Shown: positions 32,892-40,504 of the stretch, piece by piece | How positions within the stretch are numbered: position 1 is the first letter of the stretch | How the letters are laid out: the number at the start of each line of letters is the position of its first letter | Source of the DNA: Puniceicoccaceae bacterium | GTDB lineage: Bacteria > Verrucomicrobiota > Verrucomicrobiia > Opitutales > Coraliomargaritaceae | Direction of reading: 5' to 3' | Length of the DNA stretch: 64,000 nt | Assembly: GCA_007117865.1 (NCBI GenBank) | Contig: SKFT01000110.1 | Location: 1,004-65,003 of the forward strand | Made by a program: the position numbers and the translations under genes | The notes under the pieces: generated by a model | What the model saw: the letters and a program-made list of their open reading frames with translations, nothing else | Told to the model about the DNA's origin: nothing | Databases searched by the model: none

Positions 32892-35621
32892 TCAGCCCGT
32901 GGTGCGCAGTCCACTTGCAATTGCATTGATTACCAACAGCAGCCTTTCGAGCGTGTCCTCATCCGCCTTGGCAGTGTTTTGGCGGAATATCTGCAAGAGT
33001 CTAATCTGTTCGGCGTGGAGGCTGGACAGGGCAGTATCACGGGCGGCCAAGGTGCGCATGAAGCGGGGTCTGCGTTCTTGAATGGGTCTTTTAAAGAGAT
33101 GCCGCAAGTGTTTCAGCGCAATTTTTCTTTCGTTTATAATCGTGCGCAGGAAGCGTTTGCCAACCGCCTGTGGATTGACCAATGCTGCGTAGGCTTTCAT
33201 CCACTCTTCATCCGAGCTTGCGAGACTGCTTTCAACGTTGACAAAGACATAGCGCAAGAAGCGACTTTGGTTCATTAGGCGGCGCAGTTTCCGATAATCC
33301 CCAGGATGATTTTTTTGCAAGTATTCGAGAGCGCTGCCAGCGCCAAACCAACCCGGAAGGTAGAAACGGGATTGATTCCAGCTGAAGACCCAGGGAATGG
33401 CTCTGAGGTCTCCGAGGTCCGCCTTGCCGGTGCGACGTGAAGGACGTGAGCCGATCCGACTTAATTCAATCGCATCGATCGGCGTGGCCTGGCGAAAGAA
33501 GGTCATGAAGTCATCCGCCTCGATCAGTTGACGAAATGCCTTGCGTGAATGGTGTGCCAGGCATTCAAAAACACCTTCAACGGCATGGTCCAACTCGATA
33601 TGGGAGCTATCCAGGCCACCCATCAGGCGGGCGCCCAGACTGCCAGCCAAAAGGTATTCCAAATTGCTCACTGCAGTTTCCGGAACGTTGTATTTTTGGC
33701 CAATTACTTCGCCTTGTTCGGTTATTCGCAGTCCGCCGCGCAAGGCTCCCGCTGGCAGTGCTTCGAGGAAGCGGTGAGTTGGACCCGCGCCGCGACCGAT
33801 GGTACCGCCGCGCCCATGAAAGAAGCAAATTCCCGTGTGATGCTTGTCGCCAATAGTCAACAGCGCCCGCTCGGTTTTGTGCAGAGCCCACTGGCTGGCA
33901 AGGATCCCGGCATCCTTGTTGCTATCGCTGTAGCCGAGCATAATCATCTGCAACGGTTTGCCATTCTGTTCCGCCAGAGTGGCGCGGTGGCAAGGGTTTT
34001 GCAGCAGGGCATCGACAATGCCGGGAGCCGCTTCCAAATCAGCAAACGTTTCGAATAGAGGCACAACAGGCAGTGCCGACTTTACCTGGTTCTTTTCGAT
34101 CCGGGTAAGGCCCGATTCCTTCCCCAATACGTATACGATCAATAAATCCGCCAGAGAGCGTGTCATGCTAACAATCAGCACGCCCAAGCCATCGCTGCCG
34201 TAGGCGTCGATATGCTCGCGCAGGACTGAAAACGTTGCCCGCACCTCGGCAGCGGTTTCCGGCAAGGGCATGGAAGGGTGGATCAGAGGTCGTGGCTGGC
34301 GGAGTTCTCGTTCCAGAAAAGCCACTTTTTGCGGCACATCCCAATCGGCAAACGTATTGGCTTCCTGCATGCCGGCGGCTTGCAGCATTTCTACCAGGGC
34401 ACGTTCGTAGGTGGTGCTATTTTGGCGAATATCGAGGCGGGCCAAGTGTAGTCCGGCACAGTTTAAATAACGCAGCAGTGGATCGATATGCCTTTGACAG
34501 ATCCGGCGGGCACCAATGGCATTCAATGCTGTGGAAATGCTCAGTAGTCGGTCTTCGAGTTCATCCCGCGACAAGTTGGGGGAGGCCTCTGCCAAAGCGA
34601 TGACGTAGTAGCGCCAAGGTTCCTGGCGATGGGTGTCAATTTTCCAGTTATTCAAATCGCTGGTAAGATTCTGTGGCAGCGCCAAAATGTTTTCATGAAA
34701 AGTCATGGCCGAAGCCAGCTTCAGCAACTCATTGCGGATGACCTTCTGGGCGGCCGAGCGTTGCCTTTCGAGCGTTTGCTGTGTGACAGCGGCGGTGACC
34801 AGAGGATGGCCATCACGATCACCACCTACCCACGAACCGAATCGCAGCACGGGTAGATCGGTGGCAGCCAGTGGCTGTGCCTGTGGCCAAGTTTGCTTCC
34901 AGGCATGCTGCAAACGCATATCGCTTTCGCCATGGATGGTTGGAAAGACTTCACTGAGAAAATACAAAACGTATTCGCGCTCCTCTTCCACGGTAGGTTT
35001 TTCCGAATACGTTTCTCCGGTCAGCCAAAGTTGTTCCAACAAACTCCGCATATGGGTTTGGCATTGCTCAATTTCCATAGCGGTGGCAGCGTTTTCGCGC
35101 TGTTTCAGGGTTTGCACGATCGAGCGGTGGAGACGCAAGACCGACCAACGCTTGGCCTCTGTGGGGTGCTTGGTGAAAACCGGTTCCACGCAGGTTGAGC
35201 GCAGCGCCTCTCGGACCGTAGCGGAATCGACACCAGCTGCGGATAAATGGCTAAAGTAATGGAGCCACTGTCCCGCTTCAGCAGAGAGGGGCGATTGGGC
35301 TTCGCGCTGTTTGCGGACTTTATTGGCGACGTATTCCTCGGCCAGATTCAGAAGCTGTAAACAAAATGACAGGACTTGAGGGACGGTTTTACCGTCTGGC
35401 AGTCGTTTCCCTTTCCGCAGCTTGGCATGTTCGGATAGCGTATTGTGCTTTTCTGCTTTGGTATTTAAAAAAACACTACAGACGAACGCGGCGTCGGGTT
35501 CCTTCAAGTCAGTTAAAACATGTTGAAAAACCAGGATCAAATATTGGTGGATTGTGTCGACCTCTTTCAGGCCGGAGCGAACGGTAGATACAAAACTGGT
35601 GTGATTAGTCCGTTTATTCAT
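32892..35621 (-). CDS. ppc: Phosphoenolpyruvate carboxylase
   Basis: VFTKHPTE, GYSDSNKDAGILAS, FHGRGGTIGRGAGP and the C-terminal IASGLRTTG. Confidence 0.95.
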   Translation of the reverse strand: MNKRTNHTSFVSTVRSGLKEVDTIHQYLILVFQHVLTDLKEPDAAFVCSVFLNTKAEKHNTLSEHAKLRKGKRLPDGKTVPQVLSFCLQLLNLAEEYVANKVRKQREAQSPLSAEAGQWLHYFSHLSAAGVDSATVREALRSTCVEPVFTKHPTEAKRWSVLRLHRSIVQTLKQRENAATAMEIEQCQTHMRSLLEQLWLTGETYSEKPTVEEEREYVLYFLSEVFPTIHGESDMRLQHAWKQTWPQAQPLAATDLPVLRFGSWVGGDRDGHPLVTAAVTQQTLERQRSAAQKVIRNELLKLASAMTFHENILALPQNLTSDLNNWKIDTHRQEPWRYYVIALAEASPNLSRDELEDRLLSISTALNAIGARRICQRHIDPLLRYLNCAGLHLARLDIRQNSTTYERALVEMLQAAGMQEANTFADWDVPQKVAFLERELRQPRPLIHPSMPLPETAAEVRATFSVLREHIDAYGSDGLGVLIVSMTRSLADLLIVYVLGKESGLTRIEKNQVKSALPVVPLFETFADLEAAPGIVDALLQNPCHRATLAEQNGKPLQMIMLGYSDSNKDAGILASQWALHKTERALLTIGDKHHTGICFFHGRGGTIGRGAGPTHRFLEALPAGALRGGLRITEQGEVIGQKYNVPETAVSNLEYLLAGSLGARLMGGLDSSHIELDHAVEGVFECLAHHSRKAFRQLIEADDFMTFFRQATPIDAIELSRIGSRPSRRTGKADLGDLRAIPWVFSWNQSRFYLPGWFGAGSALEYLQKNHPGDYRKLRRLMNQSRFLRYVFVNVESSLASSDEEWMKAYAALVNPQAVGKRFLRTIINERKIALKHLRHLFKRPIQERRPRFMRTLAARDTALSSLHAEQIRLLQIFRQNTAKADEDTLERLLLVINAIASGLRTTG

Positions 35622-35687
35622 TATTTGGCTCGAATGATAGACATGTGCAGTGGTTCAACCCTAGATAGCACTTAGCAGGACAGGAAG

Positions 35688-40000: not shown

Positions 40001-40504
40001 TGCGGCGATGCGCGGAACGGCTTTTTTATCATTGGGGACGGGCAGGCCATCCTCGGCGACGTGAAAAACCCCCTTGGTGGTGCGGCGGTCGCTCTTGGGA
40101 TTGTGCAATACTCCCTGGCGGATGCGATAGGAATCGATGATGTCCGAGCTGAAGTGGTCTCCATTGCACGGCAGGGAAAGCACCCGCCCCACACCATGAC
40201 GGTCGAGGGTAAAGGGATGGCGTGGCAATTGGGGAACCACCTGGGTCGACTCAAAATAGCGCCGCAGAAAGTCTTGTATGCGCTGGTCACACGGCGGCAG
40301 GTAATCCGACAGCAAGCGGGTGCGCTCCTGATAGCTGGCCAGCAAGGAGCGTCCCATGCCATACAGAAAAGAGCTTTCGTCAGCATCTGCCAGGCTGACT
40401 CCCATAGCCAATAGCTTCAAGCGAATGTATTCGGCGATTGCAGCCTCGTCCAAGCTGGACGAAGCATCTTCCGGATTGAGTCCCAGTTGTGTGGTCAACT
40501 TCAT
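37061..40504 (-). CDS. 1147-aa PEPCK-like P-loop protein; candidate PPi-dependent phosphoenolpyruvate carboxykinase
   Basis: Its size matches the roughly 130-kDa PPi-PEPCK class described from Propionibacterium and Entamoeba. P-loop CTVSGGGKSEISK at nt 39023-39043. It is adjacent to ppc. The assignment comes from recollection of the family, not from a search. Confidence 0.45.
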   Translation of the reverse strand: MKLTTQLGLNPEDASSSLDEAAIAEYIRLKLLAMGVSLADADESSFLYGMGRSLLASYQERTRLLSDYLPPCDQRIQDFLRRYFESTQVVPQLPRHPFTLDRHGVGRVLSLPCNGDHFSSDIIDSYRIRQGVLHNPKSDRRTTKGVFHVAEDGLPVPNDKKAVPRIAAARLLEIALNPPAEAMRLPFTSQTDTPVESWVSLLMRPVVVPEVSGFTPEKSYEVRFFAPGSMVCNLDFVESIFGNGGDPSLPENDAALDPEHWTGHSGCVILAPQMLLATKKELGLPHFDDASERQRRDGMCWRKEHERYNDGGAFKITCRDASGVVVTAIADNYFGYCKKEVKTQISFSANLLGLAEEEHAGGTISFTGSDLGEDFQLSRYADPHEHHFEEIARLFSERMEIRPEGYAIDRNYNNIIYLPEDARISLNDQKIVWKKDDQEQLLKLLPDRTYVYPSGYKVEMIKPAEGRRWRLAGFNADGIVLHKPCTVSGGGKSEISKPITDAIVTGPVFVNDFKADFDLAEEIINRDYSDRFRDHPNSSSRPILSSERSLGSVVKLLTPSANDYNDTYNEWLRSIPQQVKDLVFIIKRFYKQDWGSDWRKRFSVDSINGIPGKELRYRGQKLITQYLRVGYADDGSWRTFGLRKDFLPSQKFSMEDDITASVIVPTESLSHLPGNIIGKAAKFIHNCEYRFFQRPDDAIIRGYDKVTELDMSSAGNFLSNYEPLRKVHAVEEVEDTIRFSQYTEPMQKMIAAVADGAGPDYYCTNAFPRIVDGKPTQNPRYQQVRPDLRDPRGLYLAEQTSRMRRRAPLDKALYRPVTAVLPGRRNNPPDPAAGIGALCVYNPIHYYELPELFMEYIASITGKSPSTTGAGSEGALTKAPFNALPPIYDLNNALVAYICTGHEVFITSAGYVGPNYRVDHDISLLIPELWARLRPDEINPSFLIDNGYLEKLEDFEYNGEKLLASRLGYRITSRFMRIFGGRIFNNPTSVFTEEMLKPELQDAEIYASGIKTITAAHQEVAANYFADGSIELACPPLKALLYIMAQGDFEGKDAQHHDIRQMFTLDNMLASSWYQERLQSLQQQHIKDLERGICDLEAFNNRASHKELIKRMQVASRLEKLQNDLTQAKSTDYLREMRYTLGRQPIK

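Follow-up and report, generated by a model that had tools for sequence, protein, structure and literature searches.

A Pyrophosphate-Dependent PEP Carboxykinase, a 5TMR-LYT Histidine Kinase and PEP Carboxylase in a Lineage-Specific Gene Cluster of an Opitutales-Like Bacterium

The Gene Cluster and Its Two Enzymes

Contig SKFT01000110.1 (assembly GCA_007117865.1) stems from an uncultured Opitutales-like bacterium. A stretch of it, 64,000 nucleotides (nt) long and analyzed here as a whole (hereafter the window), carries three co-directional open reading frames (ORFs) on the minus strand: a gene for a pyrophosphate (PPi)-dependent phosphoenolpyruvate carboxykinase (PPi-PEPCK), a gene for a sensor histidine kinase, and ppc, which encodes phosphoenolpyruvate (PEP) carboxylase (PEPC; table 1). 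The subject of this article is the cluster formed by these genes and the relation of the kinase to the two enzymes that enclose it. A preliminary description of the window had placed the three ORFs where we find them.

The genes are closely packed. At the junction of PEPCK and kinase the letters read aaGTGATGg, so that the PEPCK stop codon TGA (37063-37061) forms a 4-nt overlap with a kinase starting at GTG or a 1-nt overlap with one starting at the ATG at 37061; gene calls in public databases use the ATG, giving a protein of 457 amino acids (aa). The overlap of stop and start that had been described is therefore real, but its letters are GTGATG and not ATGA. The distance of 66 nt between kinase and ppc was given correctly. 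The RNA of this spacer folds at -7 kcal/mol (z = +1.8), which amounts to no stable structure. A scan for sigma-70 promoters and terminators found no terminator-like site between the genes of the cluster and one weak sigma-70-like match in the spacer, in a region where such matches are no more frequent than in shuffled sequence and in a host that is not Escherichia coli-like, so that beyond the missing terminator the scan carries little information. Rfam found no riboswitch near the cluster. Given the tight spacing and the lack of a terminator-like site, co-transcription of the three genes is plausible.

The 1147-aa product of the first gene is by homology a true PPi-dependent PEPCK. A phmmer search against the chains of the PDB matched residues 24-1145 to entries 8e1u and 6k31 (E = 0, ~1185 bits), which are titled “PPi-dependent PEPCK” and “AiPEPCK”, respectively, and the precomputed Pfam label of the protein is PF26300, PEPCK_PPi_lobe_2. 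The assignment had first been inferred from size, a P-loop and the neighboring ppc, and this full-length match bears it out. The P-loop-like motif GGGKSEISK (residues 489-497) is invariant in an alignment of 11 sequences. No match was obtained in the copies of the Pfam-A and NCBIfam libraries that were scanned; we rejected this as evidence against a PEPCK because the family is missing from those copies and the identity was settled by the PDB match. The enzyme would catalyze the reaction PEP + CO2 + inorganic phosphate (Pi) <-> oxaloacetate + PPi. It has over 8000 homologs, the nearest named ones being Opitutales enzymes at 66% identity, and the ratio of nonsynonymous to synonymous substitution rates (dN/dS) against its relatives is 0.02-0.04. 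Most homologs of PPi-PEPCK are entered as “hypothetical protein” in public records, the family being systematically under-annotated.

The third gene was identified as ppc in the preliminary description, with which the profile PF00311 (683 bits) and the catalytic motifs HPTE, GYSDSNKD, FHGRGG, RAIPW and C-terminal TTG agree. Because its score of 667 on the NCBIfam equivalog model falls under the cut-off of 815, the PEPC is best described as divergent, though it is intact. Its closest homologs belong to the Opitutales at 50-53% identity, and among the matches listed by a word-indexed search of a 5.8-billion-protein database none exceeded 53%. Compared with the ~889-aa Opitutales homologs it has an N-terminal extension of ~20 aa.

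Table 1. Features of the cluster and its upstream flank, in window coordinates
Feature	Position	Strand	Remarks
PPi-PEPCK gene	37061..40504	-	1147 aa; EC 4.1.1.38 family
Sensor histidine kinase gene	35688..37061	-	457 aa from ATG; 458 aa from GTG at 37064
ppc, PEP carboxylase gene	32892..35621	-	909 aa; intact
Stop/start overlap GTGATG	37059..37064	-	sequence read directly
Kinase-ppc spacer	35622..35687	-	66 nt; unstructured, without terminator-like site
Membrane sensor domain, residues 1-195, helices H0-H6	36477..37061	-	PF07694 at ~residues 43-191
HisKA phospho-acceptor domain, ~residues 222-287	36204..36398	-	PF00512
HATPase_c catalytic domain, ~residues 335-445	35730..36059	-	PF02518
His232 phospho-acceptor codon	36366-36368	-	
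Arg72 codon	36846-36848	-	
Arg99 codon	36765-36767	-	
Palindrome GGCAAG-GTCAAAG-CTTGCC (GGCAAGGTCAAAGCTTGCC)	40618..40636	.	perfect 6+7+6; in the divergent GYF_2/PEPCK intergenic region
GYF_2-domain protein gene	40668..41477	+	divergent from PEPCK; adjoins PEPCK in every clade locus
Gene for ~93-aa protein of unknown function	41635-41928	+	kept in every clade locus extending that far

The Histidine Kinase and Its Membrane Sensor

Three Pfam domains make up the kinase, 5TM-5TMR_LYT (63.8 bits, with a gathering cut-off of 24.6 bits for PF07694), HisKA (45.8 bits) and HATPase_c (60.8 bits). The H-box SHELMTP lies at residue 231, followed by the N, G1, F and G2 boxes (ENLLENAVKF at 344, DAGPG at 377, FLPF at 391 and GIGIGL at 407), and H232, N349, G379, G381 and G435 are nearly invariant in an alignment of kinase homologs. 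These domains and motifs bear out the earlier reading of the protein as a 5TMR-LYT sensor joined to a HisKA H-box. The best NCBIfam matches of the core are the hybrid kinases TorS, ArcB and BarA, all far under the cut-offs. Since dN/dS against the orthologs is 0.08-0.12, the gene is functional, and the product is an intact class-I HisKA kinase under purifying selection.

An AlphaFold2 model of the kinase (mean predicted local distance difference test score, pLDDT, of 87.8) places seven helices between residues 2 and ~195, mostly with pLDDT above 80 (2-29, 39-57, 72-83, 85-102, 107-127, 137-158 and 160 onward). The last transmembrane helix is modeled as one continuous helix, 160-251, that runs through His232, and neither the Pfam scan nor the model revealed a cytoplasmic sensor domain (PAS, GAF or CBS). 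The membrane domain is predicted to have the seven-helix fold of an S-component, the substrate-binding subunit of a transporter, with a single helix leading to His232. Foldseek matched the model to the kinase cores of CpxA, GacS and HK853 (E ~1e-11); the core dominated the matches of the full-length kinase, so that about the membrane domain they say nothing of their own.

The sensor by itself (205 aa) was compared with 1.84 billion representative proteins; 3073 of them reached E < 1e-3, and 2078 also E < 1e-10. Identities above 50% are confined to the kinase's own cluster, the other relatives standing at 35-44%. Among the 66 best sensor relatives, HisKA is found in 33, HATPase_c in 34, PAS in ~55, a receiver domain in 16, GGDEF in 7 and GAF in 6; among 10 sensor relatives of similar length a single one is without PAS, and it uses HisKA_2. 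5TMR-LYT sensors are known to carry diverse cytosolic domains, and KinB is listed among the members of the family as a 5TMR kinase (PMC11109136). The idea that a 5TMR-LYT sensor with HisKA is an unusual pairing has to be given up in the light of these counts and of KinB: the combination is common, and it is the absence of PAS that is less common.

Several sensor residues bear on the nature of the ligand. A hallmark of 5TMR-LYT is the NxR motif, which lies between the first helix and the second (PMC11109136). At this site the window kinase has D70-T71-R72, keeping the arginine and replacing asparagine by aspartate, as across its subfamily. In alignments of 67-101 sensor relatives D70, R72, R99, G84, G104, G110, G121 and P179 are invariant. 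BtsS and YpdA, which are receptors for pyruvate, belong to the family (PMC10653868, PMC11109136). Arg72, Arg99, Cys110 and Ser113 form the pyruvate site of BtsS, at the periplasmic face of its transmembrane helices (PMC10653868). A BLASTP comparison of the kinase with E. coli BtsS aligned residues 98-121 in register at a marginal E of 0.04; within this segment BtsS R99 corresponds to kinase R99, and BtsS C110 and S113 correspond to kinase G110 and T113. R72 of the kinase lies outside the aligned segment, has the same residue number as BtsS Arg72 and is invariant in the subfamily. Together, Arg72 and Arg99 suggest an anionic ligand held in the membrane cavity.

The preliminary description had proposed a sensor for C3/C4 acids or for PPi status. 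The first proposal is possible: both arginines are kept and Cys110 and Ser113 are replaced, and the arginines, being invariant throughout the subfamily, single out neither pyruvate nor C4 acids as the ligand. Sensing of PPi in the cytoplasm is unlikely, since the modeled helix 160-251 is continuous and there is no cytoplasmic sensor domain.

The earlier observation that no response regulator is encoded in the 64 kb holds, and extends to the flanking sequence. No receiver domain was found when all six reading frames of the window were searched by phmmer with five receiver sequences, by Pfam scans of its 49 ORFs (the longest non-overlapping ones of at least 90 aa), or in the precomputed Pfam labels of the genes called in 5.7 kb beyond it on the metagenomic contig as deposited in ENA (ERZ27301260; 73.5 kb, compared with 70.4 kb for the NCBI copy). 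The three nearest 5TMR-PAS-HisKA kinases examined are likewise without an adjacent regulator and lie in unrelated, heterogeneous neighborhoods, so an orphan state appears to be typical of the subfamily. We also considered the contexts of these distant kinases as a clue to the ligand and set them aside as heterogeneous and uninformative.

Gene Order among Relatives

Close homologs of the kinase form only five clusters among 5.8 billion proteins, at 100, 83, 83, 73 and 68% identity. In the window and L001 (kinase and PEPCK both 100%) the overlapping PEPCK and kinase genes are followed by ppc. In L002/L003 (kinase 83%, PEPCK 95%) the kinase follows PEPCK after 10 nt and precedes convergent ExbD genes, and in L004/L005 (73% and 90%) it follows after 104 nt and precedes a convergent short-chain dehydrogenase (SDR) gene. 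The pair has been kept in L002/L003 and L004 at synonymous divergences (dS) as large as 0.7-2.5. The 104-nt spacer of L004 (9897-10000) contains a 16-bp AT-rich hairpin without a U-tract (-31.7 kcal/mol, z = -3.3), which may separate or attenuate transcription there. Two sister lineages have no kinase: in L089 (PEPCK 86%) PEPCK is followed by a convergent gene for a glycogen-branching-type enzyme and in L090 (PEPCK 85%) by a holin-like gene, with no remnant of kinase or ppc in either. In L088 a kinase of 68% identity is encoded beside an ABC-auxiliary gene, away from PEPCK.

The L002/L003 relative also preserves the history of ppc. Between the kinase and ExbD (approximately L002 8531-8672 and L003 11444-11585) lies a ppc remnant in which 102 nt of the start region, at 78% identity, are fused to 40 nt from the interior of the gene. 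Because this decayed 5' end sits at the same place, ppc was already present here in the ancestor and was deleted in the relative; a recent insertion of ppc in the lineage of the window was considered and rejected on the same ground. As enzyme classes, PPi-PEPCK is reversible and the PEPC reaction irreversible (PMC8100219). That ppc was lost while PPi-PEPCK stayed in place would fit two PEP-carboxylating enzymes that are redundant, and the decay suggests that PPi-PEPCK can take over anaplerotic PEP carboxylation.

For a wider comparison, 80 PPi-PEPCK loci totaling 1.46 Mb were taken from other genomes, most of which belong to Verrucomicrobiota. None of the 80 contains a 5TMR-LYT kinase; ppc lies within 10 kb of PPi-PEPCK in one of them (Cerasicoccus) and is adjacent in none. 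The full trio therefore occurs on the window's own contig only and the pair in three close lineages only. Conservation of gene order, proposed earlier as a test of the arrangement, accordingly fails for the trio and is partial for the PEPCK-kinase pair, which is present in those three lineages and missing in the two sisters. Across the clade the downstream flank of PEPCK takes the form of kinase and ppc, kinase and ppc remnant, kinase and SDR gene, glycogen-branching-type enzyme gene, or holin-like gene. Judged from these variants, the flank is a rearrangement hot spot, and the juxtaposition of kinase and enzymes is young and evolutionarily unstable.

A different sensor kinase was encountered beside PPi-PEPCK in three Verrucomicrobia of subdivision 3. 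It is a hybrid kinase of 1123-1144 aa with the architecture MASE1-PAS-HisKA-HATPase_c-REC-Hpt, encoded divergently from PEPCK (L077, 6493-9927 on the minus strand; L062, 6501-9872 on the minus strand; and L063). This adjacency is one further, independent evolutionary event and, by our estimate, not beyond chance.

Upstream of PEPCK, in the intergenic region shared with the divergent GYF_2 gene, the palindrome GGCAAG-N7-CTTGCC occurs as a single copy in the window, where 0.15 would be expected. It recurs upstream of PEPCK at each of the six loci of the clade, whether or not the kinase is there, and in none of the 80 distant loci, making it a candidate operator or promoter element. The GYF_2 gene is the sole neighbor of PEPCK shared by all six; the gene for the ~93-aa protein joins it wherever a locus reaches far enough.

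The nearest named relatives of the window proteins belong to the Opitutales/Puniceicoccaceae. Exosortase EpsH and a GlgA-like glycosyltransferase (window 29281-31856), at 57-61% identity to these relatives, lie near PPi-PEPCK here as in Lentimonas-like Opitutales, five to six loci of which (L017, L022, L024, L025, L031 and L032) have them at a distance of 6-9 kb from PEPCK. This loose synteny supports the Opitutales affinity. The RNase Y, exosortase, FGE-sulfatase and PEGA genes of the window fit the Planctomycetota-Verrucomicrobiota-Chlamydiota (PVC) superphylum. Elsewhere, a DUF4914 gene (profile length 612; window 13576-15486, minus strand) is interrupted by one TAG in frame (14260-14262) and so falls into two ORFs, which may reflect a pseudogene, an error of sequencing or read-through. 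A tRNA-Met (CAT) at 53205-53281 on the plus strand is the sole Rfam or ARAGORN match in the window.

The Role of the Kinase

The reading that we favor, with moderate confidence, is that the PPi-PEPCK-kinase-ppc cluster is lineage specific and probably co-transcribed, and that the kinase, most likely, is an orphan sensor of an ordinary kind with a place in the PEPCK operon. It is the rearranging downstream flank of PEPCK that leads us to this view. The signal of the kinase would come from the membrane or the periplasm and is plausibly a small anion that Arg72 and Arg99 hold in the cavity. After autophosphorylation on His232 the kinase would hand the phosphoryl group on to a response regulator whose gene lies elsewhere. 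Since its translation directly follows that of PEPCK, the two proteins would always be made together. The present evidence links the kinase to the PEP-oxaloacetate node by position only and does not mark it as a dedicated regulator there.

Several points weigh against this reading. Adjacency maintained over saturated synonymous divergence (L004, dS ~2.5), together with the overlap of the genes in the window, would also be expected of a functional link; a second, unrelated kinase, the MASE1 hybrid, stands beside PPi-PEPCK in the three subdivision-3 Verrucomicrobia; Arg72 and Arg99, to which pyruvate binds in BtsS, are conserved (PMC10653868); and the Opitutales affinity is drawn from four proteins only (PEPCK, PEPC, EpsH and GlgA).

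An alternative is a kinase that is a dedicated sensor of an external C3/C4 carboxylate (pyruvate, malate, oxaloacetate or succinate) and that controls the cluster through an unlinked regulator, possibly acting at the palindrome upstream of PEPCK and so tuning carbon flow between PEP and oxaloacetate. The stop/start overlap with PEPCK, the retention of the pair in three lineages, the clade-specific palindrome, membership in the family of the BtsS and YpdA pyruvate receptors with Arg72 and Arg99 kept (PMC10653868, PMC11109136), and the independent MASE1 kinase of subdivision 3 are all compatible with such a role. Nevertheless, we consider it unlikely. The pair is missing in two sister lineages and in the 80 other genomes, the kinase ortholog of L088 is found away from PEPCK, and loci that lack the kinase conserve the palindrome just as well. 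The arginines are invariant in more than 60 relatives of unrelated context and so indicate no particular ligand, and the BtsS-specific Cys110 and Ser113 are not conserved. Furthermore, if ~1% of genes encode kinases, two kinase adjacencies among dozens of independent neighborhoods are, by our estimate, about what chance would provide.

A bolder version of this idea makes the PAS-less 5TMR-LYT/HisKA kinase the first dedicated regulator of the PPi-dependent PEP-oxaloacetate node, with an external C3/C4 carboxylate bound at Arg72 and Arg99 and an unlinked regulator acting at the palindrome on the expression of PPi-PEPCK, and of PEPC where it is present. This we hold to be quite improbable; if true, the MASE1 hybrid kinase of subdivision 3 would be a convergent solution.

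Two further alternatives deserve hardly any credence. That the kinase reads PPi or energy status in the cytoplasm and couples it to the PPi-dependent enzyme is suggested solely by its PPi-using neighbor, while the protein has no PAS, GAF or CBS domain in the cytoplasm, its helix 160-251 leads straight from the membrane into the helix bearing His232, and the ligand site of BtsS is on the periplasmic side (PMC10653868). A kinase acting directly on PEPCK or PEPC, by phosphorylation or binding and without a response regulator, would account for the lack of a regulator in ~70 kb and would have its stoichiometry fixed by translational coupling with PEPCK, yet the protein has a canonical HisKA/HATPase_c core whose best matches are classical phosphorelay kinases, kinases of the subfamily are commonly without an adjacent regulator, and relatives of the PEPCK work without this kinase.

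PPi-PEPCK is little studied, and most pipelines still call such proteins “hypothetical”. To our knowledge, nothing is known of the transcriptional control of PPi-PEPCK, and as far as searches by term reached we found no literature linking the enzyme to a two-component system. PPi-PEPCK and 5TMR-LYT kinases are both already known kinds of protein; were the kinase to control PPi-PEPCK, it would offer a first handle on the regulation of the enzyme and a new ligand class for S-component-like 5TMR sensors. On present evidence, the practical value lies in the correct annotation and in a testable but weak hypothesis. The occurrence of PPi-PEPCK in an unsampled Opitutales-like lineage extends the picture of PPi-based energy saving in the Verrucomicrobiota.

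Each part of the cluster has known counterparts. The PEPCK resembles the PPi-PEPCKs of Propionibacterium freudenreichii (8E1U) and Actinomyces israelii (6K31) in full-length homology, size (~1130-1150 aa) and the GGGKSEISK motif; it differs in coming from an uncultured Opitutales-like bacterium. Like the MASE1 hybrid kinase of subdivision 3, the window kinase is a membrane-embedded sensor kinase adjoining PPi-PEPCK, but the MASE1 protein has an unrelated sensor domain, is encoded divergently and not downstream, and has its own receiver and Hpt domains. The closest sensor relatives are kinases of the type 5TMR-LYT-PAS-HisKA-HATPase_c(-REC) from metagenomes and metagenome-assembled genomes (MAGs), of which ~55 of 66 carry PAS and 16 a receiver, whereas the window kinase has neither.

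BtsS and YpdA (PyrS) of E. coli share with the window kinase the seven-helix 5TMR-LYT sensor (PF07694) with Arg72 and Arg99. In BtsS the sensor is combined with GAF and with a His_kinase domain of the LytS type, and a LytTR regulator is encoded next to the gene, in contrast to the HisKA domain of the window kinase, which has no GAF and no adjacent regulator; within the sensor, NxR, Cys110 and Ser113 of BtsS are replaced by DxR, glycine and threonine. KinB of Bacillus subtilis is, like the window kinase, a 5TMR-LYT sensor kinase (PMC11109136), a likeness drawn by description only. It belongs to another phylum and another pathway, the sporulation phosphorelay. KinB likewise possesses a core of the HisKA type and lacks both PAS and an adjacent regulator; it feeds Spo0F.

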